Shown: positions 31,203 to 57,866 of the stretch, one piece after another
How positions within the stretch are numbered: the first letter of the stretch is position 1
Layout: each line of letters opens with the position of its first letter
IMG/VR virus record: IMGVR_UViG_3300045988_173726
Location: 64,001-128,000 of that record
Length of the DNA: 64,000 nt
Strand: one strand, 5' to 3'
Source of the DNA: a virus
Program-made: the position numbers and the translations under genes
The notes under the pieces: model-generated
What the model saw: only the letters and a program-made list of their open reading frames with translations
Database searches by the model: none
Told to the model about the DNA's origin: nothing

Positions 31203-31480
31203 CTAGCAGTTTCCAACAATGTAGAAGAAACAGGAATTATTCTCGACTTTATACATTTTATTTAGTAAGCAGTCCTATACAGATGTATTCAACGCAAGAC
31301 AGTTGAGCATCTCCCTTTAGGGCTAAGTTTATCAGAAGCCTTGACAACAATTTTCATTGTGTGGCTACGGTTGAAATGAGATGAGTTAGGGTGGAATAGG
31401 TTAACCGTAAGACCTTGAGTTGCAAAACTCTAAAATTGAGCTAGAGTATGGATTTTTCAAGTTTCGTATTTCTAGTTACG
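31203..31480 (+). mobile_element. ORF-less mini copy (left-end block fused to right-end block) of the TnpB-like element
   Basis: 31203-31268 matches the left-end blocks at 31511 and 36309 (CAGTTTCCAACAATG..GGAATTATT..). 31269-31480 matches the post-stop blocks of both full copies and ends at the same CTAGTTACGG. Confidence 0.7.
31269..31480 (+). ncRNA. orphan copy of the omega-RNA-like structured block
   Basis: About 212 nt, homologous to 32966-33173 and 37748-37963. Carries the invariant TCAAC-GCAAGACA-GTTGA hairpin. Confidence 0.45.
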
Positions 31481-31618
31481 GTATCAGTCGAAGGACAAGT
31501 AGGAAGAGTAATCGACAGTTTCTAACAATGCGGAAGAAGCAGGAATTATTTCTCGATTTTCTATGTTGTTTTAGTTAGCTAAGGTTATTTCATTAGGGGC
31601 GCAGGGTGGTGAGGTGTA

Positions 31619-32950
31619 ATGCAGAAACTAAAGTTGACTACAGTAGCACAGCTACATGAGGGGAGTAACCGATGTTTAATTGAATATATGGAATCTTCTC
31701 GTAGCGATTACGGAAAAGCATTGCGAGAGACTTTCTATGCAATCAAGCGAGGAGGAGTAAATAAGTCAAAGTACAACACATATCTCCAGTATAAATACGG
31801 AATTTCTAGTCGGACTGCAAATTCTATCATTTATGACGCACAAGGACGCTTTAATGCTCTTAAGGAGTTAAAAGGGCATGAAAGGAAGCAGTTGGAGAGA
31901 AAAATTAAGTATATTGAGAGTGTAGTTATTCCAAAGCTAGTTGAGAAAAGGAATCAGAACTCAGCTAAAATTCAAGACGGAGCATATGTGTTGCTGGGTC
32001 AACAAAGGAATCTAAGGTTAAGGGTAGTTGCGAAGAAGTCAAGGTTAAACAGGCTGAAACAGAAGCTAAAGGCACTAGAGTACCAATTAAAATCTGGAAT
32101 GTTAAAGCTTTGTTTCGGTACAAAACGGCTACTTAAACAAGACCATGATAAGTTTGTTGAACAGCGAGACAGCCAAATGACTCTCATAGGAGCTAAAGAG
32201 AAACCAGCGTGTAATCCAGTTTTACAGTTGACTTATAATCGAAGGAGTAATCAGTTTTTGATTCGGTTGCGGAAAGATTTCGGAGGGTATAAGTCAGCAA
32301 GAGGTGAGGATAGATATGCTTATGGAAAGGTTTATTTCAATCTTCATAAGACACAGCTTGTATCAATTTTGAGGTATAAGACTAGTCCTCTATCTTATAG
32401 AATAATCAAGATGAATGGCAGATATTACCTATATTGTATATTTGAGTTTCAAGTAAGTGCTGGCGATATAGTTACTCGTTCTTCTTACGGAACGATAGGG
32501 CTGGACTTTAACAAAGGTTTTGTGACCTTATCAGAGACGAATCAATACGGTCATCTAGTAAAAACACAGTTTATGCCATATCGGTTTAAGTCTGGAAACA
32601 AGACAAATACAGACCTACAAGCAATAGCAAATCATGTAGCTAAACTAGCATTGGTAACAGGAAAAGATGTTTGTATAGAGAATCTTGATTTTAGAGCAAA
32701 GAAAGCTAAGACAGAATCAAAGATAGGAAAGAAATACAACGAGATGCTTCATTCGTTAGCCTATCGGGAGTTTAGTGACGCGATGAAAAGTGTAGCATAT
32801 AGAAACAGAGTTAGATTAAATAAAGTAAATCCAGCGTGGACATCATGGTTAGCAGATAGGATTTATTGTAAGTCTATGAAGTTGAATATACATACTGGAG
32901 CTTCATATGTAATAGCAAGGCGTGGACAGGGTTATAAAGACGCTGTGTAA
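31619..32950 (+). CDS. TnpB/IS605-OrfB-like protein lacking the zinc ribbon and the RuvC-III Asp
   Basis: IGLDFNKG (RuvC-I), VCIENLDF (RuvC-II) and VNPAWTSW (the V.P.YTSQ block). These are followed directly by LADRIYCKSMKLNIHTGASYVIARRG, with no CxxC..CxxC and no D.NAA. Confidence 0.75.
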   Translation: MQKLKLTTVAQLHEGSNRCLIEYMESSRSDYGKALRETFYAIKRGGVNKSKYNTYLQYKYGISSRTANSIIYDAQGRFNALKELKGHERKQLERKIKYIESVVIPKLVEKRNQNSAKIQDGAYVLLGQQRNLRLRVVAKKSRLNRLKQKLKALEYQLKSGMLKLCFGTKRLLKQDHDKFVEQRDSQMTLIGAKEKPACNPVLQLTYNRRSNQFLIRLRKDFGGYKSARGEDRYAYGKVYFNLHKTQLVSILRYKTSPLSYRIIKMNGRYYLYCIFEFQVSAGDIVTRSSYGTIGLDFNKGFVTLSETNQYGHLVKTQFMPYRFKSGNKTNTDLQAIANHVAKLALVTGKDVCIENLDFRAKKAKTESKIGKKYNEMLHSLAYREFSDAMKSVAYRNRVRLNKVNPAWTSWLADRIYCKSMKLNIHTGASYVIARRGQGYKDAV

Positions 32951-33173
32951 GGAGCATCTAACAATCAATCCTATACAGATGTATTCAACGCAAGACAGTT
33001 GAGCATTTCCCTGTAGGATTAAGTTTACTAGAAACTCTGATAACAATTCTCATTGTGTGGCTACGGTCGAAATGGAATGAGTCTGGATGGAATAGGTTAG
33101 CCGTAAGACCTTGGGTTGGAAAACTCTAAAATTGAGCTAGAAATGTGGATTTCTTAGCTATTTTCTAGTTACG
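32951..33173 (+). ncRNA. omega-RNA-like conserved block downstream of TnpB-like copy 1
   Basis: Conserved in three copies and ends abruptly at CTAGTTACGG. Hairpins show compensatory differences between copies. Confidence 0.5.
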
Positions 33174-33346
33174 GCTAACGCCTGCGGAGCGAGAAGAGGT
33201 TTTACGGGGCTTAGAAGCATAAAGCCCCGTAGACGCACGAGACGGCGTTTTACGGGCGGTTAGAGGTTTAAGCCTAAGGAATAGCCTAGGGGCAGTTAGG
33301 CGGCTTGGAGAGGCGTGTAGCGCGTCAGAGAGGGATGAGGGACGAT

Positions 33347-33649
33347 ATGGGAGAGCAGAATAGAAATCCGCTTGAGGGGTTACTTGAGGTACGGCGTGAG
33401 GTAAGAAAGCTTTGTCCAGAGCTTTTTCCGAAAGAGGAGCGAGTAGCCTACGGGGTAGTAGGCGAGACAGGAGAGCCTTCGGTGGCGCTTCAAAAGTTTA
33501 ATAAGCTATTGGCGGCACAGACGGGCAGTAAGACAGGAAAGAAGCGAAAGACAGCGGTAAAAGTCCCAGCAAAGCAAGGAAAGGTCGGAGACGGCGAATT
33601 TACGGGAACGAGTTTATTTGAGGCGATGAAACGAGGGGGAGTGCTATGA
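33347..33649 (+). CDS. small basic hypothetical protein
   Basis: ATG 33347 follows GAGGGA. The stop overlaps the next ATG (ATGA). Confidence 0.5.
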   Translation: MGEQNRNPLEGLLEVRREVRKLCPELFPKEERVAYGVVGETGEPSVALQKFNKLLAAQTGSKTGKKRKTAVKVPAKQGKVGDGEFTGTSLFEAMKRGGVL

Positions 33650-34065
33650 GTAAGCGCGTGTATGCGAAAGCCGAGACGGTACGAGTTCTAGATAGGTGGG
33701 ACGAAGAAGCGGAAGCTTCACTACAACTGCTTGCGTCCCCGAAGGCAATCGTAAGTCGTGTGAGGACAAATCCGAGAGGGTATTTCAAGCGTGTTAAGTA
33801 TGTTGTTCGACACGAAGGGAATGAATTAACTGAGGTTATAGTGAATTGTGAGGATTTTGATGCAGAGTCACCTTTCTTTGTCGGGACAGAGGAGATGATG
33901 TTTGTGTTTTCAACGCGGGGCAGTATACCTTGTACTTCTTTTACCGTCAAAATTAGCTTTGCAACAGGTTCTATCAAGATATTCGGAACTATAGAAGCGA
34001 TAGGATACTTGACAGACTGGCTTCATGTTCCATTTACAGATTTTAAGCTTGTGAGATACAGGTAA
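33646..34065 (+). CDS. family-A paralog A1
   Basis: RVYAKA, VSRVRTNPRG, IKIFG and the C-terminal DWLHVPFTDFKL. RBS GGGGGAG. Confidence 0.65.
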   Translation: MSKRVYAKAETVRVLDRWDEEAEASLQLLASPKAIVSRVRTNPRGYFKRVKYVVRHEGNELTEVIVNCEDFDAESPFFVGTEEMMFVFSTRGSIPCTSFTVKISFATGSIKIFGTIEAIGYLTDWLHVPFTDFKLVRYR

Positions 34066-34083
34066 GAGAATGGGGGTTTTGTT

Positions 34084-34494
34084 GTGAAAGTATATGCGAA
34101 AGCAGTGAAATTGAGAGTACCAGACAGGTGTGACGGGGATATACATGTCACGCTTCAAATGGTTAAGCCTCTAAATGCGGTTTTAAGTAGAATAATGACA
34201 ACGCCGAACGGACGGTTAGTTCGTTCAGAGTATGTTGTTCGGAACGAGCAGGGAGTAACAACTCTTAGAGCAAATTTTGGTGAGTTTTGCGCAGAATCAC
34301 CTGTACCTGACGGCACAGAGCGGATAAGGCTTAGATTTTTAGTACGAGGTGGAGCAATACACACCTCAATTCGTGTCAATATCAATCTTTTGACTGGCTC
34401 TATAGATATATTTGGAAAGTATGGGACAGTCGCAGACTTGACTGACTGGCTTCATGTGTCGCCTAGCGATTTTAAGATTGTGAGAGCCAAGTAA
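34084..34494 (+). CDS. family-A paralog A2
   Basis: KVYAKA, LSRIMTTPNG, IDIFGK, DWLHVSPSDFKI. Confidence 0.65.
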   Translation: MKVYAKAVKLRVPDRCDGDIHVTLQMVKPLNAVLSRIMTTPNGRLVRSEYVVRNEQGVTTLRANFGEFCAESPVPDGTERIRLRFLVRGGAIHTSIRVNINLLTGSIDIFGKYGTVADLTDWLHVSPSDFKIVRAK

Positions 34495-34516
34495 GAAAAG
34501 TTAGCGGGGGAGGTTT

Positions 34517-34933
34517 ATGAGTGGTCGAGTTTACGCGAGAGCAGGGAAGATGCGGGTCAGTCCGTTTCGAGATAGCGACAATGATACTGTACGGGCTACA
34601 CTTCAACGGGTAATATATCCGAGGTCATTTCTAAGTCGGTTAAGAACAAATCCGAAGGCGGAGTTTGTTAGCGCTGAATGCGTCATTCGTAATAGAGCAG
34701 AGAGTATACCGCTACGGTTTGAGGATTTGGTAGCTTTTCATTTCCCCATAGGAACGGTAGGTGTGACTTTAAGGTTTAAGCCGCGCTATAGTTTCGGAGA
34801 CAGTCTACTCTCTATTAAGACTAACCTTATCACAGACGATATAGAGGATATAGAGATAGTCGGGAAAAGAGAAGCGGTTGTAGACTTGTTAGAGTGGTTA
34901 CATGTGCCGCTGTCAGAGTTTCGATTGAAGTAG
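34517..34933 (+). CDS. family-A paralog A3
   Basis: RVYARA, LSRLRTNPKA, IEIVGK, EWLHVPLSEFRL. Confidence 0.65.
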   Translation: MSGRVYARAGKMRVSPFRDSDNDTVRATLQRVIYPRSFLSRLRTNPKAEFVSAECVIRNRAESIPLRFEDLVAFHFPIGTVGVTLRFKPRYSFGDSLLSIKTNLITDDIEDIEIVGKREAVVDLLEWLHVPLSEFRLK

Positions 34934-34946
34934 TTTGGGGTGGTCT

Positions 34947-35402
34947 ATGAGTAAGAAGAGTAAGAAACAGTACGCGAGAGCTGAAGTAATAAGTCCATTT
35001 CTGGGGAGCGGTGGCGATGTGATAAAAGCTTGTCTTAGTATAGTTGTTTCTCCTATGGCATTTGTACGTCGGGTAATAGCGAATAAAATTGGTAAGCTAG
35101 CGGGTGTTGAGTACATTGCTTCTCGTGAAGCTGGCTATCTTCCGATACTGGCAGAAGATTTCCTAGCCAATGCGGATTTACCTAGTAACACGAAATGTGT
35201 AAGGCTTAAGTTCATGTTGCATAGTAGTTTATCCAGCAGTCTATCGGGTGGTATATTCTTAGTATTTGTTAGCTTCCGAGTTGGTCGTGTAGAAATACTC
35301 GGAAAGATGAATACAGTAGTAGCCCTAGTCGATTGGCTTAATGTTCCGTTTTCGGAATTTGAATTTATCCTTCCGAGTTCAGATTCATTGTGTTTAGGTT
35401 AG
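34947..35402 (+). CDS. family-A paralog A4
   Basis: QYARAE, VRRVIANKIG, VEILGK, DWLNVPFSEFEF. I prefer the ATG at 34947. Confidence 0.6.
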   Translation: MSKKSKKQYARAEVISPFLGSGGDVIKACLSIVVSPMAFVRRVIANKIGKLAGVEYIASREAGYLPILAEDFLANADLPSNTKCVRLKFMLHSSLSSSLSGGIFLVFVSFRVGRVEILGKMNTVVALVDWLNVPFSEFEFILPSSDSLCLG

Positions 35403-35415
35403 GGGGTTTGTGGAT

Positions 35416-35838
35416 ATGAGTGGCAGGAAGTATTTGGATGTGGGCCATTTGAAGATAAGTAGTTCTGGTGGTATGCGAGGTCTATTGCATGTAACTTGCA
35501 AGACTAGCGCTTCTCTAAAGGCACTTGCGAGTAGAGTTTGCACGAATCCGCATAGTAGATTAACGGAAGCCTATTATTTAGTGGCGGGAAGTAGTGGGCG
35601 GCTTAATATCGAGGAGCTAAGTGTGTTGGACTTAAAAGCCTTTCGTTTACCCGAGGTGGCTGTTGGGCTTAGACTTGATTTTTCATCAAAAGGTAAGCTA
35701 GAAAGCAGGATAGGCGGCGAGGAGTTTTCAGTTTGGATTAACTCTGTGGAGAGTAAGCTGGAGATAATTGGCAAGAGAAACGCCGTTATAGAGTTGTGCG
35801 CGTGGCTTAATGCGCCGCTTTCAGATTTAATTAAGTAA
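35416..35838 (+). CDS. family-A paralog A5
   Basis: ASRVCTNPHS, LEIIGKRNAV, AWLNAPLSDL. Confidence 0.6.
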   Translation: MSGRKYLDVGHLKISSSGGMRGLLHVTCKTSASLKALASRVCTNPHSRLTEAYYLVAGSSGRLNIEELSVLDLKAFRLPEVAVGLRLDFSSKGKLESRIGGEEFSVWINSVESKLEIIGKRNAVIELCAWLNAPLSDLIK

Positions 35839-35861
35839 TTCTGTGTTTAGGAGGTGAGATT

Positions 35862-36257
35862 GTGGGCGAGAGACGGTATCTGGACGATAGTTCCGTAAAG
35901 ATAGCGTGGGTTGGAGATAAATTAGACGCAAAGTTTAGAGTTGTCTCGTCATTAAAGGCGGTTGCGAGCCGTGTTAGGACAAACCCAAAAGGTAAGTTAG
36001 TGGAGGCTTCATGCGTAGTAGCTAGTGGCGGCAGTGTAAGATATGTTATGCTAAGGGTAGCGGATTTAGTTGCCTTCCGTTTACCTGTTGGGACTACTAG
36101 CGTTTTGCTTATTTTTGAGTCGAAAGGTAGTAGGCGCGGGGAAACATTTTCCATTATAATTGACTTAGCGGGGAAGTCGTTAGAGATAATTGGTAACAGA
36201 AACGAAGTAGTAGATTTGTGTTCGTGGCTTCATGAGCCGATTTGGGGGAATATATGA
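35862..36257 (+). CDS. family-A paralog A6
   Basis: GTG start 8 nt after AGGAGG. ASRVRTNPKG, LEIIGNRNEV, SWLHEPIWGNI. Confidence 0.6.
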   Translation: MGERRYLDDSSVKIAWVGDKLDAKFRVVSSLKAVASRVRTNPKGKLVEASCVVASGGSVRYVMLRVADLVAFRLPVGTTSVLLIFESKGSRRGETFSIIIDLAGKSLEIIGNRNEVVDLCSWLHEPIWGNI

Positions 36258-36310
36258 CAGAACGAAGAAGCAGTGACAAGAGTTCCGTAAAGATAGCGCG
36301 GATAAATTAG
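36254..36310 (+). pseudogene. 5' remnant (18 codons) of a family-A paralog, truncated by TnpB-like element copy 2
   Basis: ATGA overlap with the A6 stop. MTERRSSDKSSVKIARIN resembles the A6 N-terminus MGERRYLDDSSVKIAW. Its TAG stop lies at the element's left boundary. Confidence 0.6.
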
Positions 36311-36400
36311 CCGTTTCCAACGATGCAGAGAAGCGGGAATTACGTCTCAATTTTCTATGTTTTAGTTAAGGTTTTCATTAGGGGCATAGGGTGAATTGTA

Positions 36401-37732
36401 ATGCAGAAGCTAAAGTTGACTATAGTAACACAGCTACACGAGGGAAGTAACCGAGGTTTAATTGAATATATGGAAGCTTCCCGTAGGGATTATGGGAAAG
36501 CAATGCGAGAGACTTTCTATGCAATTAAGCGTGGTGGTTTTGATAAGTCAAAGTACAACACATGCCTTCAACATAGACATGGAATTGTTAGTCGAACTGC
36601 AAATGCTATCATTTCTGACGCTCAAGGAAGATTTTATGCTCTTAAGGCGCTGAAAGAGTGTGAGAGGAAGCAGTTAGAGCGAAAGATTAAATATCTTGAG
36701 AGTACAGTTATTCCTAAGTTAGTTGAGCAAAGGAATCAGAATTCAACTAAGCTTCAAGACGGAGTATTTGTTTCGTTGATTCAACAAAGGAATCTAAGGT
36801 TAAGGGTAGTTTCAAAGAAGTCTAAACTAAATAGGTTGAAGCAGAAGCTTGAAGTGTTGAAGTATCAACTAGAAATAGGAAAGTTAAAGCTTTGTTTTGG
36901 AACGAAAAGGTTGTTAAAGCAAGACCAAGAGAAGTTTATTGAGCAAAGGGATAGTCAGATGACTTTCATAGGAGCTAAGGGGGAGCTAGCATGTAATCAC
37001 AACTTGCAGTTGCGCTACAATCGAAGAAGTAATCAGTTTTTGGTTCGATTGCGTAAAGATTTCGGAGGGTATAAGTTAGTTAAAGGCGAAGATAGGTATG
37101 TTTACGGCAAAGTTTATTTCAATCATCACAAGGGACAGCTTGTTTCGATTCTGAGGTCTAAAACTAGTCCTTTATCTTATAGGATAGTCAAAAGGAAAGG
37201 TAGGTATTATTTACACTGTATATTTGAGTTTCAAGTAGGGAACAGCGGTATAGTTACTCGTTCTTCTTACGGAACGGTAGGATTAGACTTTAACAAAGGG
37301 TTTGTGACCTTATCAGAGACGAATCAGTACGGACATTTAGTTAAAACAGAGTTTATGCCTTATTGTTTCGAGTCTGGAAGTAAAACAAAAACAGACTTAC
37401 AGGATGTAGCTAATCATGTAGTTAAACTAGCTTTACGAACAGGTAAGGATATTTGTATAGAGAATCTTGATTTTAGAAGAACAAAAGCAAAGACAGAAAC
37501 AAAGATAGGAAAGAAATACAATGCTATGCTTCATTCTTTAGCCTATCGAGAGTTCAGTGACGCGATGGGGAGTGTATGTTATAGGAACAGTGTTGGATTG
37601 CACAAAGTAAATCCAGCGTGGACATCATGGTTTGCAGAGAGGATTTATTGTAAACCTATGAAGTTGAACATACATACTGGGGCTTCGTATGTAATAGCAA
37701 GGCGTGGGCAAGGGTATAAGGATGCTATATAA
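36401..37732 (+). CDS. TnpB/IS605-OrfB-like protein lacking the zinc ribbon and the RuvC-III Asp (copy 2)
   Basis: Same length and motifs as copy 1: VGLDFNKG, ICIENLDF, VNPAWTSW, NIHTGASYVIARRG. I counted 20 differences in the first 101 residues. Confidence 0.75.
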   Translation: MQKLKLTIVTQLHEGSNRGLIEYMEASRRDYGKAMRETFYAIKRGGFDKSKYNTCLQHRHGIVSRTANAIISDAQGRFYALKALKECERKQLERKIKYLESTVIPKLVEQRNQNSTKLQDGVFVSLIQQRNLRLRVVSKKSKLNRLKQKLEVLKYQLEIGKLKLCFGTKRLLKQDQEKFIEQRDSQMTFIGAKGELACNHNLQLRYNRRSNQFLVRLRKDFGGYKLVKGEDRYVYGKVYFNHHKGQLVSILRSKTSPLSYRIVKRKGRYYLHCIFEFQVGNSGIVTRSSYGTVGLDFNKGFVTLSETNQYGHLVKTEFMPYCFESGSKTKTDLQDVANHVVKLALRTGKDICIENLDFRRTKAKTETKIGKKYNAMLHSLAYREFSDAMGSVCYRNSVGLHKVNPAWTSWFAERIYCKPMKLNIHTGASYVIARRGQGYKDAI

Positions 37733-37963
37733 ATAGCATTTAACAATCAGTCCTACACAGATGTATCAACGCAAGACAGTTGAGCATTTCCCTGTAGGAC
37801 AAAGTTTAATTAGAAGCTCTGGCAATAATTCTCATTGTGTGGCTCTACGGTCGAAATGGGATGAGTTAGGGTGGAATAGGTTAACCGTAAGACCTTGAGT
37901 TGAAAAACTCTAAAATTGAGCTGGGAATATTGATTTATTAAATTTCGTATTTTCTAGTTACGG
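37733..37963 (+). ncRNA. omega-RNA-like conserved block downstream of TnpB-like copy 2
   Basis: Homologous to 32951-33173 and 31269-31480, with the same terminal CTAGTTACGG. Confidence 0.5.
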
Positions 37964-37967
37964 TTCA

Positions 37968-38000
37968 TGGCTTTATGTGCCGATTTGGAGGAGTGTGTGA
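37968..38000 (+). pseudogene. 3' remnant (10 codons) of a family-A paralog
   Basis: TGG CTT TAT GTG CCG ATT TGG AGG AGT GTG TGA reads WLYVPIWRSV*, which is the family-A C-terminal signature. Its TGA overlaps the ATG of the next paralog. Confidence 0.55.
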
Positions 38001-38671
38001 TGGAAAAAAGAAGAAGCAGTGGAAAGATTAAAGTTAAAAGGGACGCTAATGGTCGTTTAGTTCAGACTTTTGACGCCCAAGTTAAAGTTAAGAGGGACGC
38101 TAATGGTGATTTAGTGCAGATTGGCGGCGATAAAGAAACCGTGCGGGTTAAGGCATCTAGTAGGCACGGTATAGGCACTAGGAATTTGGCAGGGGCAGGT
38201 TTGGGTGTTCATCATCTTGTTAAGGACGCGAGCGGTCGTTTAATTGTGTGTGATAATATTGGTAGTGTTCTTAGGGGTAATCTTGGGGGTAAAAAGATAC
38301 ATTCTATAGATATAGACGGTCGGGTTCAGTTATGGAGAGGTAACGGAGTTTGTAGTGTATCATTTGGGATACTGATGGAGCCAAGAGAGTTTTTGGAGGG
38401 ATTGGTACAGTATCCGAATTGCACGAGAGCTGAAGTAGCTCTGATGTATCCGAGTTTTAAGTCTACAAAGTTTACTGCTAATTATAGCTTAGATAAGCTG
38501 ATTAGAAATGGGCTTTCAGAGGACACTCGTGGTATGATTCTTTATTTTAGTCGCAATAGGGAAGTAAACTATAACCTTACAGCGATGGTAAGCTTTATGG
38601 ATAGGATACTGACGCTTACAGGGGATAATGATTATGTGGCGGCGTTGGTTCATTGGCTTAGTGCGAGGTGA
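38000..38671 (+). CDS. family-A-related paralog A7 with an N-terminal repeat extension
   Basis: ATG 38000 follows GGAGGAG. N-terminus MEKRRSSGK. Repeats VKVKRDANGRLVQ, VKVKRDANGDLVQ and VKDASGRLIV. C-terminus LTLTGDNDYVAALVHWLSAR. Confidence 0.55.
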   Translation: MEKRRSSGKIKVKRDANGRLVQTFDAQVKVKRDANGDLVQIGGDKETVRVKASSRHGIGTRNLAGAGLGVHHLVKDASGRLIVCDNIGSVLRGNLGGKKIHSIDIDGRVQLWRGNGVCSVSFGILMEPREFLEGLVQYPNCTRAEVALMYPSFKSTKFTANYSLDKLIRNGLSEDTRGMILYFSRNREVNYNLTAMVSFMDRILTLTGDNDYVAALVHWLSAR

Positions 38672-39024
38672 CTTGTGTGAATAGACCGATGGTAAAGCTC
38701 TTACATGTCGAGCAGAATCACGGCGGGGTTGATTGGAGTAGGGTGCTTCACTATAAGATTCTGATAAACACATTAACCTTCGCGAAGATTCTTGTAAAGA
38801 AGAATTTAGATGAAATAGAGTTTATACAGTGTGTGGAGTATGTAAAAGACGAGTGTAGCGGAGCTTGGAAGAGTGAGTGGAGTCGTATTAAGCCAGACGA
38901 GTTCTTAAAGCTTAAGTATCGGCGTAAAGAACGCAAGGAGTATATTATCAACTTCACGAGCTGTAATGTGGCGGTAATTCGTTGTTGGCGGCGGGAAGCG
39001 GATATTGTAGAGGTTAGTTTATAG
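38668..39024 (+). CDS. hypothetical small protein, possibly a diverged family-A member
   Basis: It occupies a paralog slot in the array. The start is uncertain (GTG 38668 or ATG 38689) and similarity to family A is weak. Confidence 0.4.
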   Translation: MTCVNRPMVKLLHVEQNHGGVDWSRVLHYKILINTLTFAKILVKKNLDEIEFIQCVEYVKDECSGAWKSEWSRIKPDEFLKLKYRRKERKEYIINFTSCNVAVIRCWRREADIVEVSL

Positions 39025-39042
39025 CGTTTATAGGGGGAGTTT

Positions 39043-39372
39043 ATGCGGAAAGCGCGAATTAAGCAAGTTGAAGTAGGGAAGTGGAAGCTAACGGAGTCGG
39101 TAGAGAGTTTTCTTCGCTTTGCGCTTAGGGAAAGCAACTTTAGTAACGCATTATTCAAGGTTACTGTAGGAGATGGGGAGCAGTGGAAACAGGTTTCGGT
39201 AGTCGAGGCAGTTAGCTTTGCGAAGCAGACGCTACGGTTTATCTGTATTGAGTATGGCGACCCGTCTACGATGCGAAGTTGTAGTATGTGTATAGACGCA
39301 GGGAGCAGGCTTTTAACGCTTTTTGGTGACGAGGAGCTTATCGGATTTGTTCTTTCCGAGTGCGGGGTGTGA
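39043..39372 (+). CDS. diverged family-A-like paralog A9
   Basis: RBS GGGGGAG. The C-terminal LLTLFGDEELIGFVLSE resembles the I.IFGK....L..WL block. Confidence 0.5.
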   Translation: MRKARIKQVEVGKWKLTESVESFLRFALRESNFSNALFKVTVGDGEQWKQVSVVEAVSFAKQTLRFICIEYGDPSTMRSCSMCIDAGSRLLTLFGDEELIGFVLSECGV

Positions 39373-39803
39373 GAGTGGCGAAAAGAAAGCGTCTTGAAGT
39401 TATTAAGCGTTATATTAGTCCAGACCTGTGTTATGCAGAGGTAACTTGTGAGCTAGGCTGTAAGCCTTCTGCAATTTGTAGCTGGGCGCTTAAGACCTCT
39501 GGGGTTGCAGAGTATGTGGAAATAATGGCAGAGCATAAATTAGGCTTGTGGGGGCGAGTAACACAGTCGGTTCTTGAGCGTGATGTTTTAATAGGGGGCA
39601 GAGAGTTCATGTTCTCTTTTGGTACGAGACCTGATGACACTTTTCTTACCCTTTTTCTTGACTGTAGGTATAGGCAAGTGCGTATTTGTGGAATACCGGA
39701 GTTGATTTTCTCGTTTATAAAGGCATTTAATGGCGCGATAGTGATAAAAAGCCTTTTATATGAGTATGCAAAGGCTGTCTTACAGCACGAAGAGGTGGAA
39801 TGA
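39360..39803 (+). CDS. diverged family-A-like paralog A10
   Basis: QVRICGIPELIFSFIKAFN resembles LEIIGKRNAVIELCAWLN. An alternative start is the GTG at 39375. Confidence 0.45.
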   Translation: MRGVRVAKRKRLEVIKRYISPDLCYAEVTCELGCKPSAICSWALKTSGVAEYVEIMAEHKLGLWGRVTQSVLERDVLIGGREFMFSFGTRPDDTFLTLFLDCRYRQVRICGIPELIFSFIKAFNGAIVIKSLLYEYAKAVLQHEEVE

Positions 39804-40189
39804 TGAATGGCAGAGTTTTAATTAGCGAAGAGCCGCTAGAGGTGACGCCTATTAGTTGGGATACCCGCGCTATCTTTCGTACTGTGGCTACACCGAGGAA
39901 GATATTAGAGAGGATTCTAAGCATGCCGCAGAGCGATAGTTATAGTGCAAACTTGATTTTGGCAGACGGTTCATTGAATCCGATAAGCGAAGCGGCTCTT
40001 AGGTCTTTGAAGTTTCCGAGAGGCACAGTTGGAGTAGAGTTTTCCCATTCTTATGTGATTAGTGGTGGTTGGGTGACAATTTGGATAGCGATTAAATTTC
40101 GTGAAAAGACGCTTACTTTGCAGGGTGATGCGTGTGGTGTGAGTTCGGCAGTAACTTGGCTTTTAACAACAGAAGAGACGCGGGAGTAG
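39800..40189 (+). CDS. family-A paralog A11
   Basis: ATGATG start overlaps the upstream stop. Pattern LERILSMPQS, KFPRGTVGVEF, LTLQGDACGVSSAVTWLL. Confidence 0.55.
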   Translation: MMNGRVLISEEPLEVTPISWDTRAIFRTVATPRKILERILSMPQSDSYSANLILADGSLNPISEAALRSLKFPRGTVGVEFSHSYVISGGWVTIWIAIKFREKTLTLQGDACGVSSAVTWLLTTEETRE

Positions 40190-40192
40190 CCT

Positions 40193-40627
40193 ATGTATCA
40201 AGTATATACTTACACGTTGAGCGAGCTATACAGTTTGTTTGACAATGGCAGGATTAAGTTGAAAGCGCCTAGTGATAGGACGCTCTCGAATGAGCATGTG
40301 CGGCTCTTGCTTGACGGGATATTTTGCGGTTATCCGATAGCGCCGCTTGTGATAATTAGAGGAGCTACAGAGCTAGGAGAGCCAGTTATTAAGGTTTTGC
40401 ATGGCACGTTTGTTTTGTCTGTTCTGCTCGGATACCGTAAGGGAGCAATACGGAGCAAAGGTTATTTGAGTTTTAAGAGCGTATCTGATAGGTCAAAGCA
40501 CGGAGACAGCGATGATTTTATAAAGCTTATGAACTATGATGTACCTGTTATAGCGCTTAGTGATGCGAAGAGTGGAGAAGCAGAGGCAACGCTACGGTTG
40601 ATTAGAGCAATGGGAAAGCACGAGTGA
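40193..40627 (+). CDS. family-B paralog B1 (degenerate DUF262/ParB-like N-terminal domain)
   Basis: LLLDGIFCGYPIAPLVII....VIKVLHGTFVLSVLLGY fits the LIDSI..G.PIP.I.L....VIDGQQRL..L..F pattern, but FQR and DGQQR are replaced. Confidence 0.5.
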   Translation: MYQVYTYTLSELYSLFDNGRIKLKAPSDRTLSNEHVRLLLDGIFCGYPIAPLVIIRGATELGEPVIKVLHGTFVLSVLLGYRKGAIRSKGYLSFKSVSDRSKHGDSDDFIKLMNYDVPVIALSDAKSGEAEATLRLIRAMGKHE

Positions 40628-40635
40628 GGTAGAAT

Positions 40636-41229
40636 ATGGGAGCGGTCATTAAGAAAGAATTTTGGACGGTAGAGCAGATTTTTCGCTTTGTGGATGAGAG
40701 ATTGGATAAGAACGCCTTTTACACTTTGAGAACAGAGGAAGGTGCAAGTAAGGGCGCAGTGATAGATGATATAACTACGCTAGCGCAGAGTCTTGAGGAG
40801 TTTCCAAACGATGTGTTAAACTGTGTATTTAATAATTATCCACTTCCGAATATCGTACTTTGCCGTGCTAGGTTATTTCCTGACGAGAGATTTAGAGAGG
40901 GTATAGGCGAAGATGTTTGGGCGCTTTGTTCTGGTGAATTAATACTTGGTACACTTTATGCCTACCGTGAAGGTTTAGCTAATTGGCGTGCGGTTGAAGA
41001 GGATGCCGAGATTGATTATGATGACGCCGATGATGCTAATTTTGACTGGTGGAATGGTGAAAGTTATCAGACGCTTGTACAAAAGGCTTCCATGGGGGAT
41101 AGAGAGGCGAAGGAGAGGTTGGAAGCCTTTAATAACTGTGAGATTCCGTTTATTCGTATAATGGAGATTGATGACAAGGAATACATTTGGGAAATTGACG
41201 AAGTGCTTGAGTATTGCTCCGACTACTAA
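40636..41229 (+). CDS. family-B paralog B2
   Basis: VLNCVFNNYPLPNIVLCR...WALCSGELILGTLYAY, with an acidic C-terminal extension. Confidence 0.5.
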   Translation: MGAVIKKEFWTVEQIFRFVDERLDKNAFYTLRTEEGASKGAVIDDITTLAQSLEEFPNDVLNCVFNNYPLPNIVLCRARLFPDERFREGIGEDVWALCSGELILGTLYAYREGLANWRAVEEDAEIDYDDADDANFDWWNGESYQTLVQKASMGDREAKERLEAFNNCEIPFIRIMEIDDKEYIWEIDEVLEYCSDY

Positions 41230-41239
41230 GAGGCAGTAT

Positions 41240-41635
41240 ATGCAGACAAGCGGGACGGTAACGGTCAAGTGGCTTTACGATAAGTATGACAAACTAGTTA
41301 CGGCGGGAGCATTAAAGCCGTTAAGGTTCGGGGCGATTGTTTACGAGAACGAAGGTCACTATAAAGACATTTTGTCGGCTATCGTGCAGGGCTTGCCTAT
41401 TCCGCAGATAGTGGTAGGGCGAGTGAGAGCGGGGGAGACAGAGCGTTATAGCATAGTTTCTGGCGTGTTTATTCTATGTAGTTTGCTTAATTTTCGTGCC
41501 GAGAGCGGTGGTATGAGCGCAGAGCGAGTATTACAGATTTTAAGCTATTCTGTAAATCTAACGATGCTTGATACGATGACACCCCAGCGTTTAACAGAGG
41601 TAAGTAAGCTTCTAGGCGAGGTTCTGATATGGTAA
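41240..41635 (+). CDS. family-B paralog B3
   Basis: ATG 41240 follows AAGAGG; the track start at 41168 overlaps B2. ILSAIVQGLPIPQIVVGR...YSIVSGVFILCSLLNF. Confidence 0.5.
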   Translation: MQTSGTVTVKWLYDKYDKLVTAGALKPLRFGAIVYENEGHYKDILSAIVQGLPIPQIVVGRVRAGETERYSIVSGVFILCSLLNFRAESGGMSAERVLQILSYSVNLTMLDTMTPQRLTEVSKLLGEVLIW

Positions 41636-41997
41636 ACTACGAAGTAATGGGGATGTCGGTTAGGGACTTGTATCGAAGGTTAAAAAACGGGCAGATTATT
41701 TTAGAGTCAAAATACTTTGTGAAAGCTACGACAAGTAGCGAGGAGTTATTGCTTCGTGGAGTGCTTTCTGGCGTCCCGTTTCCTGCTATCGTGCTAATGC
41801 GAGAGAGCAAGGGCTATAGCGTAATTCTCGGCAGGGAGCTGTTGAGTGTGCTTATATCATTGCTTGATAGTAACGTTTATGAGGAGCTTGACGATATTGA
41901 CAAGTTTATGCTTATGCGTCACTGCTTTTATGTAAATATTGTGGAAGGTCGTGACAGCATAGATATTGTTGTAGAGGTTTTCGAGAGCTTTCGTTAG
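41629..41997 (+). CDS. family-B paralog B4
   Basis: LLLRGVLSGVPFPAIVLMR..YSVILGRELLSVLISLL. Confidence 0.5.
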   Translation: MVNYEVMGMSVRDLYRRLKNGQIILESKYFVKATTSSEELLLRGVLSGVPFPAIVLMRESKGYSVILGRELLSVLISLLDSNVYEELDDIDKFMLMRHCFYVNIVEGRDSIDIVVEVFESFR

Positions 41998-42010
41998 GAG
42001 GACTTGTTGC

Positions 42011-42379
42011 ATGAAGCACTTTAACTGTTACAACATCGACTTAACTATTTTTGATATACATGATAAGTGTTCCAGTGGAGATTTGTTGTACAAGTGTGGC
42101 AGTGATATTAAAGAGAGTGACATTGAGCTGTTAAATACCTGCCTTGAGTCTGGCTATCCGCTTCCAACACTGGTAGTTTACATAGGGAAAGACGCGCCAG
42201 CAAGGGTTCTGGTGGGTAATAGACTTGTTGCAACGATTAGCGCGTTTGTGACTATGGGAAAGTACAAAAGTTCAGTGCGAGAGAGGTTGTTTAAGAGCAT
42301 TCATTGTATCATAATAGATTCAGCTAGTCTCAGTGACGCGAATAACATTCGGCGTTTATTTAAGAGGTTTTCAGCATGA
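42011..42379 (+). CDS. family-B paralog B5
   Basis: RBS AGGAGG. LLNTCLESGYPLPTLVVY...RVLVGNRLVATISAFV. Confidence 0.5.
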   Translation: MKHFNCYNIDLTIFDIHDKCSSGDLLYKCGSDIKESDIELLNTCLESGYPLPTLVVYIGKDAPARVLVGNRLVATISAFVTMGKYKSSVRERLFKSIHCIIIDSASLSDANNIRRLFKRFSA

Positions 42380-42771
42380 GCAAGAAGTATAGGGAGATTA
42401 AGATTAAACCAGAGGAGTTAGGGCACTTGGCAGATAATTTCAAGTTATCTGTCGTGAATATTGGCAATCGGGTAGCTACTAAGCTAGACATTAGCAGAGT
42501 GAAGTCGCTTGCGGCGCATGGATTTCCGTTTCCTACGCTTGTTTTAGCAGAGTATTTAGTGGACGGGAATAGAAAGTATCGTGTTGTTTATGGCGCTGGG
42601 CTTGTATCGGCTATTTTGTCCTACATAGCTAACGCTTCGGAGAAGGAAAAGGATACGCAAGCGTTTAAGGAGTTTATGCGGTACGAGTTTACGGCTTTTG
42701 TGGTGGGCAGTGATAACAAGGAGAACGATTACTTGTTTGATGCATTTAAGGGAATAAACAGAAAGGGTTAA
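42376..42771 (+). CDS. family-B paralog B6
   Basis: VKSLAAHGFPFPTLVLAE...YRVVYGAGLVSAILSYI. The start overlaps the B5 stop. Confidence 0.5.
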   Translation: MSKKYREIKIKPEELGHLADNFKLSVVNIGNRVATKLDISRVKSLAAHGFPFPTLVLAEYLVDGNRKYRVVYGAGLVSAILSYIANASEKEKDTQAFKEFMRYEFTAFVVGSDNKENDYLFDAFKGINRKG

Positions 42772-44430: not shown

Positions 44431-45261
44431 GTGAAGATTGGAAATAAAGTCGTTCACAAGACATCATTGAATGAGGGAAAGAGCCTTGTGCCTGTAATTG
44501 CGGTAGGTGCGGGTATCGTAGGCGCAGTGGTTTATGTGTCGCTTGTCGGTAGGAATGCGAGTAAGAGCGTACAGGTTGCGCAGTTAAAGAGTAGCGTTTA
44601 TAAGAATCAGCCGATTACGCTGGATATGCTACAGCCGTATGATATGTTGCAGGCAGAGTATGACAAGCAGATAATGTCCACGGCGAATAGTGACGGCACG
44701 GTGGAGAAGCGTTTAGTTGCTTGGAAAGATGTGCAGGGCTATTTGTCGCAGGGTGCGTTTGCGGCGTATCAGCTTCCGAAGGAGAGTTTTCTCGATTTAA
44801 GGACGCTTATGACGAGCAGAGTGGACAATAGCGACAGTGTTCTTTACAGTTTCCCGGGAAAAGAGGTTGTACAGCTTGAAGTAAACGGTGCAGACTTAAA
44901 TGCGTTCAAGACTTTCATACAACCTGGAGATAAAGTAAACATTGATGCTATATACTCCGAGGATATGCAGAGTGGTAACGACAGAGTTAAGATATATCGT
45001 TCCGAGCCAGTGTTTACGGGCATTATGATAGCGGATATTATCAACAGTTCGGGTGCTTCGGTATTAGACATGTATGCAGAGTATAACGCAATGTCCGAGG
45101 TAGATAAGGCGGCATTGGATAACGATGCGACATGGCAGGAGCAGACAGAGCCGAGTTCGCTGTTAGTCGCCTTAACGCCAGATGAGAAGGACAGCTATTA
45201 TAAGTTCTTAAATCGCGACAATGTGAAGTTTAAGGTGTCGTTGCCGCAGAGAGCGGACTAA
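44431..45261 (+). CDS. CpaB/RcpC-like Flp pilus assembly protein
   Basis: N-terminal TM segment LVPVIAVGAGIVGAVVYVSLV, then a SAF-like segment VQVAQLKSSVYKNQPITLDMLQ. First gene of the Tad cluster. Confidence 0.5.
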   Translation: MKIGNKVVHKTSLNEGKSLVPVIAVGAGIVGAVVYVSLVGRNASKSVQVAQLKSSVYKNQPITLDMLQPYDMLQAEYDKQIMSTANSDGTVEKRLVAWKDVQGYLSQGAFAAYQLPKESFLDLRTLMTSRVDNSDSVLYSFPGKEVVQLEVNGADLNAFKTFIQPGDKVNIDAIYSEDMQSGNDRVKIYRSEPVFTGIMIADIINSSGASVLDMYAEYNAMSEVDKAALDNDATWQEQTEPSSLLVALTPDEKDSYYKFLNRDNVKFKVSLPQRAD

Positions 45262-45273
45262 GGGGGTAGGTTC

Positions 45274-46197
45274 ATGGCAGATATGCAGGATATACTTAAC
45301 TCTTCGGATATGGCTGACGGAAACGACTTACGGAGTAAGACAGATAAGGCGGTAGGTCGCTTAATCAGTCGTTTTTCTGGGGCAGATGAGAGTAGGAAGA
45401 TAGTAAAGCGGGTGTTAAACAATGTCATCGTGTTTATGGGAGCAAGCGGTGGCGCGGGAGCAAGCACGCTGGTCGCGACAGAAGCGGTTGCGATGAAGGA
45501 GAAGGGTCTTACGGTAGCGGTAGTTGACCTTGGAATCATGTTTCCGAGTCAGCATATCTATTTTGACTTAGACCAGTCTATCGGAAAAGCAGATTTAGTT
45601 TCGTATCTTTCGGGTAATAACGGGTTAAATGTGTCGCTTGAGTATAGCGATGTGCTGTTTAACAACGAGGCTACGGGGGTGGCAACGCTAACTGCTTGTA
45701 ACAGGACGCTTCGGGACTATGTGGTTATTGACAGTTCAAATGACGCGGTGCAAGCTTTAACGGAGGCATTAAACAGGCTTTCGAGTTTATTTGATGTAGT
45801 TCTAATCGACTGTAAGCTTGATTTAAGCTCTATGCTTGTGCAGACGACTCTGTTTAGGGCAGATAACATCTACTTGGTTATGGACGATGGGGTGCAGTCG
45901 CTCATAAATGTCAGTAAGCTCCGCGCAAACCTAGACGATTCGGGTATAAACACGAATAAGGTGCGTTATATCATGAACAAGCGTAAGAGTTTCTATTACG
46001 CAGAAAACAACTTAAAAGCGCTCGGTATAGAGTTAATCGGTATTTTGCCGTTTGAGATGGGTGTAGTCGAGTGCGGTTTAAGGGGACAGCTATTTACGGT
46101 ATCGGGAAAGAATACTAGCAAGACTTCCCCGAAGTATTTAGAGGCGGTAGACAGTCTAACGGCATCAATCCTTGAGATAGGAGGATATACAGAGTGA
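45274..46197 (+). CDS. TadZ/CpaE-like MinD/ParA-fold protein with a degenerate P-loop
   Basis: VIVFMGASGGAGASTLVATEAVAMKEKGLTVAVVDLG aligns to the ..SGKGGVGKTT..A..LA..G..V.LVDLD pattern, but both Lys are absent. Sits immediately upstream of the CpaF-like ATPase. Confidence 0.55.
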   Translation: MADMQDILNSSDMADGNDLRSKTDKAVGRLISRFSGADESRKIVKRVLNNVIVFMGASGGAGASTLVATEAVAMKEKGLTVAVVDLGIMFPSQHIYFDLDQSIGKADLVSYLSGNNGLNVSLEYSDVLFNNEATGVATLTACNRTLRDYVVIDSSNDAVQALTEALNRLSSLFDVVLIDCKLDLSSMLVQTTLFRADNIYLVMDDGVQSLINVSKLRANLDDSGINTNKVRYIMNKRKSFYYAENNLKALGIELIGILPFEMGVVECGLRGQLFTVSGKNTSKTSPKYLEAVDSLTASILEIGGYTE

Positions 46198-47744: not shown

Positions 47745-47756
47745 GGGGGTGATGGA

Positions 47757-48749
47757 ATGAAGATAAGCCCGTCACTTTATACGGTAGCGGGGGCTTCAAA
47801 GGTGGCGACACTGGTGATAATCCTCCTAGCGCTGTATGTGTTTATCGTTTGGTTTGGGATACATCCGCTAGATGTATTGCTTATCGGCTTAGACAAGTTC
47901 ACAAGGCTTGTAGGTCGGAGGGTAAATAGGCTTGACGAGCGGTATAAGCGAAATGTCGAGGTAGGTAAGCTTCGTGACGGAAGTAACTCGGTTAGGCTTT
48001 ATAAGTTTATGAACGACTTAACGATAGACTTAGGGTATAAGCGAAAGGGTGTAACGCCATACGAGTTGATGCTGTTTATTCTAGTCATATCGGTAGTGGT
48101 ATCGCTTTTAATCGGGGAGCTGATATTTAGAAGCCTGTTGCTTTCATTTCTAGCGTTTATCCCAGTGCTTTTGTCGGTGTGTTGCATCCTTTATACGAAG
48201 GCAAATATCTCGCATGATAGCCGAATCGAGGCAGTTATTTTAGCGGAGAACATAATCTCTGCAAATATCGACCGAGGCGTGGTCGTTGCGATAAGGACAA
48301 ACATTGAGTCGATGCCGATAAGCATTAAGTCCGAGTTTACGAAGTTTTTAGACAGGGTAGAGACGCAGAACTACTACATCGAGACAGCACTATTAGAGCT
48401 AGGTGCGTCCCTTGGTTCTATATCGGACGATTTTATCAGTAAGTGCATCACTTTCGAGCTTGAGGAAGAGGCTGGTTTAGCTGGTATCTTCAAAGATGTG
48501 GTAGAGGTGAATAACATAAAGACCGAGCTTAGAATCGACATGAAGCACAAGTTTGAGGCAGTGACATTTGACTTCATAATCAGTGCTACGATGGTGTTTG
48601 TGTTTTTAATCGGTGCGATAGCGATATATCCGATTTTGCAGAGATTTTATTTCCGAATGATAGTAGGACAGCTTCTTCTCCTAGTGGATTTCATGCTTGT
48701 GGTGTTTGAGTTTGTCTACATCACTTATCTTAGAGCAAAAGAGGTGTAA
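47757..48749 (+). CDS. TadB-like inner-membrane platform protein
   Basis: Polytopic, with TM segments at both ends and a soluble middle. Sits directly after the CpaF-like gene. Confidence 0.55.
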   Translation: MKISPSLYTVAGASKVATLVIILLALYVFIVWFGIHPLDVLLIGLDKFTRLVGRRVNRLDERYKRNVEVGKLRDGSNSVRLYKFMNDLTIDLGYKRKGVTPYELMLFILVISVVVSLLIGELIFRSLLLSFLAFIPVLLSVCCILYTKANISHDSRIEAVILAENIISANIDRGVVVAIRTNIESMPISIKSEFTKFLDRVETQNYYIETALLELGASLGSISDDFISKCITFELEEEAGLAGIFKDVVEVNNIKTELRIDMKHKFEAVTFDFIISATMVFVFLIGAIAIYPILQRFYFRMIVGQLLLLVDFMLVVFEFVYITYLRAKEV

Positions 48750-48751
48750 GT

Positions 48752-57676: not shown

Positions 57677-57866
57677 ATACCGTCACTACCGTGGGTTACA
57701 CGGAAAGTTAAGCTTGTGGACTGTTCTATCAAATGGGAGTAGTCTTTATATCTCGATACAAAAAAAACAAAACCAGACAGGATGAAGCAAGAAGAATTTC
57801 TAAAATATTTTATTAGAAAGGTCATGAAATATACGTTTGGGTATATTTTGTGTAACAGGCAGCAAG

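Follow-up and report, generated by a model that had tools for sequence, protein, structure and literature searches.

What does a long string of small, strongly diverged paralogous genes do on the element that carries it? The question is raised by a 64,000-nucleotide stretch of the virus record IMGVR_UViG_3300045988_173726 (positions 64,001 to 128,000 of that record; hereafter, the window), in which an initial annotation, made from the letters alone, had described about 11 tandem genes of unknown fold at 33646-40189 (family A; A1 to A11) and had likened them to diversifying accessory or anti-defense families of mobile elements. We followed up this array by profile searches, structure prediction, and comparison of related loci. 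Our analyses support eight family-A members in the window, with a confidently modeled fold and no recognizable domain, whose duplications are ancient and whose genes differ in number and kind between strains of one element lineage. We tentatively favor the idea that family A is a repertoire of non-enzymatic binder proteins.

All sizeable open reading frames (ORFs) within 33.3-42.8 kb lie on the plus strand. The first six family-A genes together occupy 33646-36257 and encode 131-155 amino acids (aa) each: A1 (33646-34065, 139 aa), A2 (34084-34494, 136 aa), A3 (34517-34933, 138 aa), A4 (34935-35402, 155 aa with a TTG start, but probably 151 aa starting at ATG 34947), A5 (35410-35838, 142 aa with a GTG start; the public gene call begins at ATG 35416 and gives 140 aa), and A6 (35862-36257, 131 aa). 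They are spaced by 1-23 nt or overlap at ATGA/GTGA, and a GGAGG-type Shine-Dalgarno sequence precedes most family-A starts. The initial annotation had described these six ORFs as tightly packed or translationally coupled, as low in mutual identity, and as sharing four motifs, from (R)VYA(K/R)A near the N-terminus to a C-terminal (D/E)WL(H/N)VP.S(D/E)F. We found all four motifs in A1-A6, the packing was as described, and identity to A1 within A1-A6 was 25-44%.

To delimit the family, we searched the window in all six frames, 619 stop-to-stop ORFs in total, with a profile of A1-A6 only. Beyond its training members (A1, E 4e-62), it recovered A11 (39800-40189, plus strand, 129 aa; E 1.9e-7) and the C-terminal half of A7 (37967-38671, plus strand; E 4e-4), and none of the remaining ORFs scored below E ~1. 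A7 is a two-part protein whose family-A domain spans approximately residues 115-234; of the two genes previously called clear members, A11 belongs to the family as a whole and A7 through its C-terminal half only. By profile similarity, eight members are secure, namely A1-A6, the C-terminal half of A7, and A11, and no others were found elsewhere in the window or within 10 kb past either end. On present evidence, the earlier count of about 11 was therefore too high.

The difference lies in A8 (38668-39024), A9 (39043-39372), and A10 (39360-39803), three plus-strand ORFs that had been taken for more diverged members; the whole segment A7-A11 (37967-40189) consists of overlapping or almost abutting genes. 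Profiles built from eight members, from 51 members, or from the A7/A11 subfamily detected none of the three (hmmsearch E >= 2.5). We also compared alignments of their orthologs with family A by hhalign, using 120 column shuffles each as controls. The p values were 0.43 for A8, 0.049 for A9, and 0.075 for A10, and shuffled columns equaled or beat the observed score in 12, 9, and 30 of the 120 shuffles, respectively. A9 and A10 showed just a short in-register '...L.L.G...' resemblance, the weak likeness of A9 to family A being C-terminal. Because neither the profile nor the profile-profile and shuffle comparisons lent support, we rejected A8-A10 as diverged members, and their kinship with family A is unproven. 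They are conserved small genes in their own right, with orthologs at 74-99% identity (74-85% for A8) and ratios of nonsynonymous to synonymous divergence (dN/dS) of 0.23-0.32 (0.31 for A8 and 0.23 for A9). Between strains, A10 has a synonymous divergence (dS) of 0.055 and a protein identity of 93-99%, compared with a dS of 0.2-0.4 for most of its neighbors, suggesting that recombination has recently swept this segment or that its nucleotide sequence itself is under constraint.

Next, we asked what kind of protein family A might be. Its best Pfam matches had E values of 0.06-0.19, far under the gathering scores; PHROGs gave nothing below E 0.056, PADLOC and NCBIfam gave no match, and the family profile matched no PDB sequence. 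AlphaFold2 modeled A3 from a 32-sequence alignment with a pLDDT of 85.9 and a pTM of 0.79, yielding seven strands and three helices in the order b1-b2-a1-b3-b4-a2-b5-b6-b7-a3. A Foldseek search of the PDB and BFVD with this model returned nothing at E <= 1e-3. The initial annotation had recognized no known domain, and these sequence and structure searches agree; nor did any of the libraries scanned place family A in a housekeeping family, an outcome that would have spoken against the initial proposal.

Two folds among the weak structural matches were considered and rejected. The CYTH/triphosphate tunnel metalloenzyme fold had the lowest Foldseek E values (0.035-0.14), yet template modeling (TM) scores were 0.15-0.32 at a root-mean-square deviation of ~10 A; besides the low TM, strand 1 reads (R)VYA(K/R)A instead of the N-terminal ExExK that goes with the eight-stranded tunnel of that fold, and family A conserves no acidic residue. 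For the Mog1/PsbP-like (DUF1795/DcrB) fold, the best match was DcrB (6e8a; E 0.19, TM 0.46/0.43), and SciW, EagT6, PsbP, and PA1624 reached TM 0.35-0.44, all short of the E <= 1e-3 or TM >= 0.5 that we required. Among the 32 aligned sequences, only G116, R41, P46, P77, V121, W127, and L128 are invariant or nearly so, and there is no conserved set of Asp, Glu, His, Cys, or Lys residues that could serve as a catalytic signature. We found no hydrophobic segment, and the isoelectric point (pI) is 7.8-9.9 for A1-A8 and near 6 for A9 and A11 (5.9 for A11, acidic to neutral). Family A is thus predicted to comprise soluble, mostly basic alpha+beta proteins of ~130 aa.

To follow the array across strains, we fetched related loci (numbered with the prefix L) with the neighboring DHH protein as the query. 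Seven came from IMG/VR and NCBI, and metagenomes supplied another 15, one of which re-samples the NCBI contig. Paralog groups were defined at >= 55% identity. The 15 complete arrays hold 3-10 family-A genes drawn from 14 paralog groups, always in colinear order and in 13 different layouts. A2, A3, A6, and A11 are almost always there, A2 (15/15 complete arrays) and A3 as core groups and A6 and A11 as near-core groups, and the other groups, A4 and A5 among them, are present or absent; A1 occurs in 2/15. The slot directly after up114, the gene that leads the array, is taken by A1, by a group called x5, by an A4-like gene as in other strains, or by nothing. In L008, A5 through B1 are missing next to an insertion sequence (IS), and three family-A copies remain. 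Strains differ mainly by whole-gene loss, replacement, or recombination, sometimes tied to a TnpB-like IS.

We then compared rates of evolution, the check that the initial annotation had suggested. In family-A ortholog groups, the ratio of nonsynonymous to synonymous polymorphism (pN/pS) was 0.29-0.54 (A2, 0.43; A3, 0.42; A5, 0.29; A6, 0.33; A11, 0.49). The flanking core genes (those for DHH, TadZ-like, CpaF-like, and other proteins) are 95-100% identical, with dN/dS of 0.01-0.05 at dS 0.2-0.35. Family A thus has a ratio ~10-fold that of its flanks at similar dS, yet below 1. In data pooled over the domain, constraint was strongest around residues 40-57 (the end of helix 1, 'RTNP', and strand 3) and 110-127 (strand 7 'IEI.GK' and helix 3), at 0.15-0.28, and weakest around residues 28-36, 58-75, and 95-106 and in the C-terminal tail, at 0.6-1.0; the extremes were 0.15 at the RTNP motif and ~1.0 near residues 58-65 and in the tail. 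The proposal of a diversifying accessory family is therefore supported as regards fast protein evolution and strain-variable copy number, but strict diversifying selection is not supported, given that pN/pS is 0.3-0.5 overall and at most ~1.0 in any 7-codon window.

Paralogs are 34-61% identical in nucleotides and have a saturated dS (1 or more), so the array is an old, maintained repertoire built by ancient duplications, not the product of recent amplification. DNA blocks common to paralogs were found for A1/A2 only (64 nt at 80% and 46 nt at 74%), and all other pairs show 34-58% nucleotide identity. Because pN/pS nevertheless stays well under 1 in all groups, each paralog has evidently been kept by purifying selection over a long time. 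The copies are also intact: 115/115 near-full-length family-A domains in 18 loci are uninterrupted ORFs. The two short fragments that we observed both lie in a nanopore-derived contig in which other genes are fragmented too. We discounted the frameshifted copies of L003/L022 as signs of decay; they come from nanopore assembly, the NlpC/P60 gene is fragmented as well, and the authors of the assembly warn of errors. Decay of most copies, which would have undermined the initial proposal, was thus not what we found.

Where does family A occur? In an exhaustive HMMER search of 1.84e9 representative proteins, it formed 202 clusters at 90% identity and 37 at 50%. Several of these 37 are spurious SpaA-repeat proteins, some 30 clusters belong to the family, and ~16 are full-length and match the paralog groups. 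The long proteins P0146, P0149, P0152, and P0154 were judged spurious because they match only via summed stretches of ~20-60 residues; P0146 and P0149 are SpaA/SdrD-repeat surface proteins, and P0152 and P0154 have no related domain. The 202 clusters derive exclusively from metagenomic sources, with the longest contigs clustering at 215-275 kb, and IMG/VR lists six such contigs as viral genomes, which bears out the earlier placement of the array on a large mobile or extrachromosomal element. The window itself matches a 264.6 kb human-metagenome scaffold, and BNJU01000154.1 (272 kb), a contig bearing family A, belongs to a published human-saliva assembly (PMC7782811). All traced family-A hits are of one element lineage. 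Island DNA had no nucleotide match in phage and plasmid collections.

We reasoned from five features: a conserved scaffold with fast segments, the lack of catalytic residues, the antiquity of the many types, their free gain and loss between elements that are otherwise nearly identical, and their confinement to one mobile lineage. Together, these would fit a hypervariable island that encodes stoichiometric, non-enzymatic binders or inhibitors of variable partners, with counter-defense or host takeover as the most economical role. This is our preferred reading, held tentatively and at somewhat less than an even chance. The array has tight or overlapping genes with Shine-Dalgarno sites and would be co-transcribed as one long plus-strand unit; a promoter and terminator scan of the region gave no excess over shuffle expectation. 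The products would share one scaffold, whose constrained parts are alpha1/beta3 'SR(V/L)RTNP' and beta7/alpha3 'IEI.GK...WL', and would differ in the fast segments (residues ~28-36, 58-75, 95-106, and the C-terminal tail). We infer that they bind rather than catalyze, each paralog neutralizing or redirecting its own variant of a protein or nucleic-acid target, and that they act in conflict. The host or competing elements would supply the targets, the array being a counter-defense or host-takeover repertoire, and strains would keep different subsets because targets differ among host populations.

Several points count against a binder repertoire. Among the genes scanned near the array, we recognized no anti-defense, defense, or toxin gene, and known anti-defense loci usually consist of unrelated genes, not strings of paralogs. 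Many known inhibitors are acidic, whereas most family-A proteins are basic. No 7-codon window of the domain had a pN/pS clearly above 1, so positive selection is undemonstrated and relaxed constraint alone could yield the values that we observed. Most members appear to be individually dispensable, as L008 keeps just three copies, which would also fit weak or no function. Lastly, a search of 185,579 species genomes for near-identical genes that would point to a host found neither the DHH protein nor the TnpB-like protein of the element.

In another reading, the array is a largely dispensable remnant of ancient duplications under weak constraint, whose single copies have no specialized role and in which strains differ by random deletion and IS rearrangement. 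A pN/pS of ~0.4 that is never clearly above 1, the free loss of copies, the IS insertion within the island (36311-37961), the IS-adjacent deletion in L008, and a truncated 19-codon fragment beside the IS would all be expected from such drift. A remnant would hardly be expected, however, to leave 115/115 near-full-length domains intact across 18 loci, to keep every group at a pN/pS far under 1 even though the paralogs have diverged to saturation, to conserve motifs and predicted fold, or to retain ribosome-binding sites and coupled starts, and we consider this explanation improbable. A functional alternative starts from charge: most members are basic (pI 9-10), and their most constrained segment is the Arg-rich loop SR(V/L)RTNP(K/R)G, as if they served the element itself by binding nucleic acid, be it as paralogous regulators, as adaptors for nucleoid or partition, or as helpers in replication or recombination, and had diversified together with their own binding sites rather than through conflict with a host. 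The neighborhood is in keeping with this, comprising DNA-metabolism and partition genes (the ParB/Srx-like family B, DHH, a ParA/MinD-type ATPase, ALP, UvrD, SbcCD-like proteins, a 5'-3' exonuclease, and PolA) and a 96-aa ORF with weak PC4 matches in two orthologs; multi-copy DNA-binding families such as Bro-N/KilA-N are known from large DNA viruses. We nonetheless think it unlikely. Neither a helix-turn-helix nor any other DNA- or RNA-binding domain or fold was detected, A11 and A9 are acidic to neutral, and no matching set of repeated DNA sites was found in or around the array; furthermore, essential cis-acting partners would not survive the loss of most copies, yet L008 has three copies and L017 has four.

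Proteins that bind without catalyzing could also serve defense of the host rather than attack on it. Family A would then be a string of immunity proteins against polymorphic toxins delivered by competitors, each paralog neutralizing one toxin variant by tight binding and so protecting the host, much as in the esaG, tsaI, and tipC strings of Firmicutes type VII secretion loci or in acquired interbacterial defense islands. The architecture is close, with small, non-identical tandem paralogs in strain-variable number (3-10 copies, 13 layouts), elevated pN/pS, and no catalytic residues, and a Gram-positive host is hinted at by LytR_cpsA_psr, NlpC/P60, and a CpaF/VirB11 ATPase resembling those of Firmicutes plasmids. 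We ranked immunity below counter-defense, and regard it as quite unlikely, because toxin, secretion, and immunity families are missing from the genes examined, the family is absent from isolates in the protein collections searched, and recombination blocks are few. Specifically, Pfam and NCBIfam gave no match to DUF600, DUF443, or any other immunity family. Neither the window proteins scanned with Pfam nor the precomputed Pfam annotation of flanking loci contained a toxin domain (LXG, WXG, Rhs, or other) or a gene for type VII secretion, ~180 kb of the element lying beyond these scans. In producer chromosomes, immunity families are normally found beside their toxins as well, whereas family A was absent from isolate-genome sources in the protein collections searched, being metagenomic and of one element lineage. 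Outside A1/A2, there are no DNA homology blocks of the kind that drives esaG/tipC recombination (PMC9484751). Neither the upstream 1216-aa NlpC/P60 protein nor g354, the gene at the head of the island, shows the conserved-N/hypervariable-C pattern of polymorphic toxins, and the top 50 Foldseek PDB matches included no solved immunity protein.

A bolder version of the binder repertoire is possible, though we hold it to be rather doubtful. Here, family A would be an unseen fold used as a modular inhibitor scaffold, the bacterial-element counterpart of the host-antagonist families of large eukaryotic DNA viruses, each paralog disabling a different host immune or competitor protein; the adjacent, catalytically degenerate ParB/Srx-like proteins of family B might act alongside as decoys of DUF262/GmrSD-type defense enzymes, and the carrier would be a widespread 215-275 kb oral element most of whose genes fall in no known family. 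Should the binder reading be correct, nature would have assembled in this array a small library in which a single new scaffold comes in 14 or more ancient variants that individual strains have or lack, and it would offer several inhibitors together with targets that point to new defense or competition systems of a presumed oral Gram-positive host. Should it be wrong, what is left is an orphan family with clear limits and a confident model, on which the discovery of function from structure could be tested cleanly. The array also flags a common, undescribed giant element of the human mouth, which has replication genes of its own, an extreme strand asymmetry, and a number of atypical TnpB-like IS.

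The array has a constant frame. In the seven loci mapped in detail, the island runs g354, 96-aa ORF, up114, family A, A8-A10, A11, family B, and DHH. The leader gene up114 (33347-33649, plus strand) encodes a basic protein (pI 10) of ~100-114 aa, the mechanical ORF starting at TTG 33305 and the public gene call giving 100 aa; its stop overlaps the A1 start (ATGA). An ortholog was present in 7/7 related loci examined (79-85% identity, dN/dS 0.32) and headed the array in all seven, and library scans gave no family match. Downstream of A11, family B (40193-42771, plus strand) is an adjacent second array of six diverged paralogs of 122-197 aa, with 17-29% identity to its first member and the common motif G(Y/L/V/F)P(I/L/F)P.(I/L)V. 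It is restricted to the same element lineage, and its copy content is strain-variable (dN/dS 0.10-0.52). Its AlphaFold2 model (pLDDT 83) gave Noc, ParB, PadC, Srx, BrxU, and KorB as top Foldseek matches, at E values that are sub-threshold (>= 0.013) and Foldseek probabilities of 0.8-0.99 for most, lower for KorB. With YG.G(L/I) in place of the usual DG..R-type motif, the model resembles a degenerate ParB/Srx-like N-terminal fold. A relationship between families A and B was rejected (hhalign p 0.59).

Between A6 and A7 lies the TnpB-like insertion that the initial annotation had noticed (36311-37961, plus strand, ~1.7 kb; the left boundary is approximate, and the right end is TTAC at 37958-37961). 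It holds a 443-aa ORF (36401-37732) followed directly 3' by an IS605-orfB-I (omega-RNA-type) RNA (37750-37967; Rfam 202.8 bits against a threshold of 94.2) and, with this TnpB-family ORF and structured RNA, is an IS200/IS605-type TnpB element. The ORF matches NCBIfam guided_TnpB below threshold (E 1.2e-8, 34.7 bits against a cutoff of 100), and a copy of it at 31619-32950 had no Pfam match, which marks the protein as an atypical relative. That copy belongs to a second TnpB-like IS at 31272-33178; the two 443-aa ORFs are 81% identical, each is followed by an IS605-orfB-I RNA, a solo copy of the RNA lies at 31272-31485, and a further ORF copy is at L012 3443-4774. By eye, the C-terminus of the TnpB-like protein (…NPAWTSW…NIHTGASYVIARRG) has neither the zinc-finger cysteines nor the sequence context of the last RuvC aspartate, and nuclease activity may thus have been lost. 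The upstream IS replaced the middle of the 96-aa ORF (remnants at 31476-31520 and 33175-33219), which is intact in, for example, L007 (496-786) and has weak Pfam matches to PC4, an ssDNA-binding family, in two orthologs (E 0.027-0.068). A second, unrelated TnpB/omega-RNA type is present on the element at 56489-57793, where a canonical TnpB (HTH_OrfB_IS605, OrfB_IS605, Cas12f1-like_TNB) is followed by a RAGATH-18 RNA (69.2 bits).

At the A6/A7 position, the IS is absent from L005, L006, L007, L009, and L010. It truncated a 19-codon 5' gene fragment resembling family A and A7 (36254-36310, plus strand; MTERRSSDKSSVKIARIN*), which we identified against the uninterrupted L007 junction and the N-terminus of P0062. 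On the two sides of this IS (36220-36310 and 37963-38016), the A6-3'/A7-5' junction is present as a 54-nt duplication that is imperfect (78%). Because IS200/IS605 elements do not normally duplicate their target, recombination with a diverged allele is the probable way in which the IS came here. The true start of A7 is probably ATG 38000 rather than 37967; a Shine-Dalgarno sequence, GGAGGAG, lies ahead of it at 37988-37994. The N-terminal extension of A7 carries KVKRDANG(R/D)LVQ repeats, encoded by a 54-nt tandem repeat with 90% identity (38028-38120), with degenerate D.(N/S/D)GR(L/V) units downstream; A7 orthologs are 197-228 aa long and vary in extension length and repeat number. The repeat motif is reminiscent of the (S/N)GRV with which the family-A domain begins. 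We rejected the 'DANGRLV' repeats as YD/Rhs repeats, for which Pfam gave no support.

Around the island, the element encodes SbcCD-like proteins, a UvrD helicase, a DHH phosphoesterase, and a 5'-3' exonuclease; a ParA/MinD-type ATPase beside a CpaF/VirB11-type ATPase, and an actin-like ALP; and LytR_cpsA_psr and the 1216-aa NlpC/P60 protein. Pfam annotation had been precomputed for called genes of the window and its surroundings, and ~85% of these genes fall in no Pfam family. PolA lies downstream of the window (L011 11495-12670), encoded apart from the 5'-3' exonuclease, and is nearest to actinobacterial and Bacillus phage polymerases (26-28%); the CpaF-like ATPase is nearest to those of Firmicutes plasmids (23-28% identity). 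The latter is part of a Tad/VirB11-like module (44431-49846 and 52883-54040) made up of the ParA/MinD-type ATPase, the CpaF/T2SSE ATPase, and two unannotated proteins of 330-364 aa; its proteins are 99-100% conserved between strains, and the actin-like ALP segregation protein is nearby. The element would be a huge phage, a phage-plasmid, or a megaplasmid of a Gram-positive oral bacterium. It is not an Inocle, as its GC content differs (39-50% in the window against 24-32% for Inocles; PMC12340149). GC skew was +0.20 to +0.39 in every 2 kb window across 1-64000 and ~10 kb on each side, and all called genes over at least 84 kb are on the plus strand, a strand asymmetry that is unusually extreme for a bacterial replicon or phage. 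We found no tRNA gene in the window. An all-against-all BLASTP showed a separate pair of paralogous small genes (3929-4441 and 4448-4978; 170 and 176 aa) right after an SbcD-like metallophosphoesterase.

How does the array compare with known systems? Like the anti-defense islands of phages and the leading regions of plasmids, it gathers small ORFs that point the same way, evolve fast, are specific to the element, and lack known domains (PMC11541004). The common orientation tells little here, since every gene over at least 84 kb is on the same strand. Such regions are marked by anti-restriction genes, ssb, psiB, anti-CRISPR genes with Aca, and proximity to oriT. In contrast, the island genes that we scanned contained no ArdA, KlcA, SSB, PsiB, or Acr-Aca marker, the nearest being weak PC4-like matches (E 0.03-0.07) in the disrupted neighboring ORF, and no relaxase or oriT was recognized in the window. 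Anti-defense islands also typically mix unrelated genes rather than a single paralogous family. At the level of structure, Mog1/PsbP-like proteins (DcrB 6e8a, SciW/EagT6, PsbP, PA1624) were the sole coherent group among the weak Foldseek matches (TM 0.35-0.46), sharing with the family-A model a small antiparallel sheet packed on helices; they differ in that E is 0.19-1.3, every TM is <0.5, and there is no sequence similarity to family A. Members of that group are protein-binding scaffolds, not enzymes.

As tandem, ancient, and diverged paralogs with gain and loss between strains and restriction to a lineage, the multigene families found in large DNA viruses, such as MGF110/360/505 of African swine fever virus and the host-range families of poxviruses, offer a parallel, and their functions are either unknown or host-antagonist. 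They differ in belonging to eukaryotic viruses and lying near genome termini, whereas the family-A array is internal and sits on a bacterial element, possibly a huge phage or phage-plasmid. The closest architectural analog, judged by gene organization, is the strings of type VII secretion immunity genes (esaG, tsaI, tipC). EsaG/DUF600, TsaI/DUF443, and TipC likewise form strings of tandem, non-identical small paralogs in strain-variable number within a variable island, with up to 12 copies of EsaG, 2-16 of TsaI, and up to 15 of TipC per string (PMC9484751). Their products are non-enzymatic binders, as those of family A may be. They differ in that family A has no sequence or fold relationship to them and adjoins no toxin or secretion system that we could find, in that EsaG/TipC strings have homology blocks between paralogs where family A has them in A1/A2 only, and in that those strings reside in host chromosomes, whereas family A is confined to one extrachromosomal element lineage. 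Overall, tandem, fast-evolving multigene families in accessory islands are already known; what appears to be new here is the protein family, its predicted fold, and the element that carries it.

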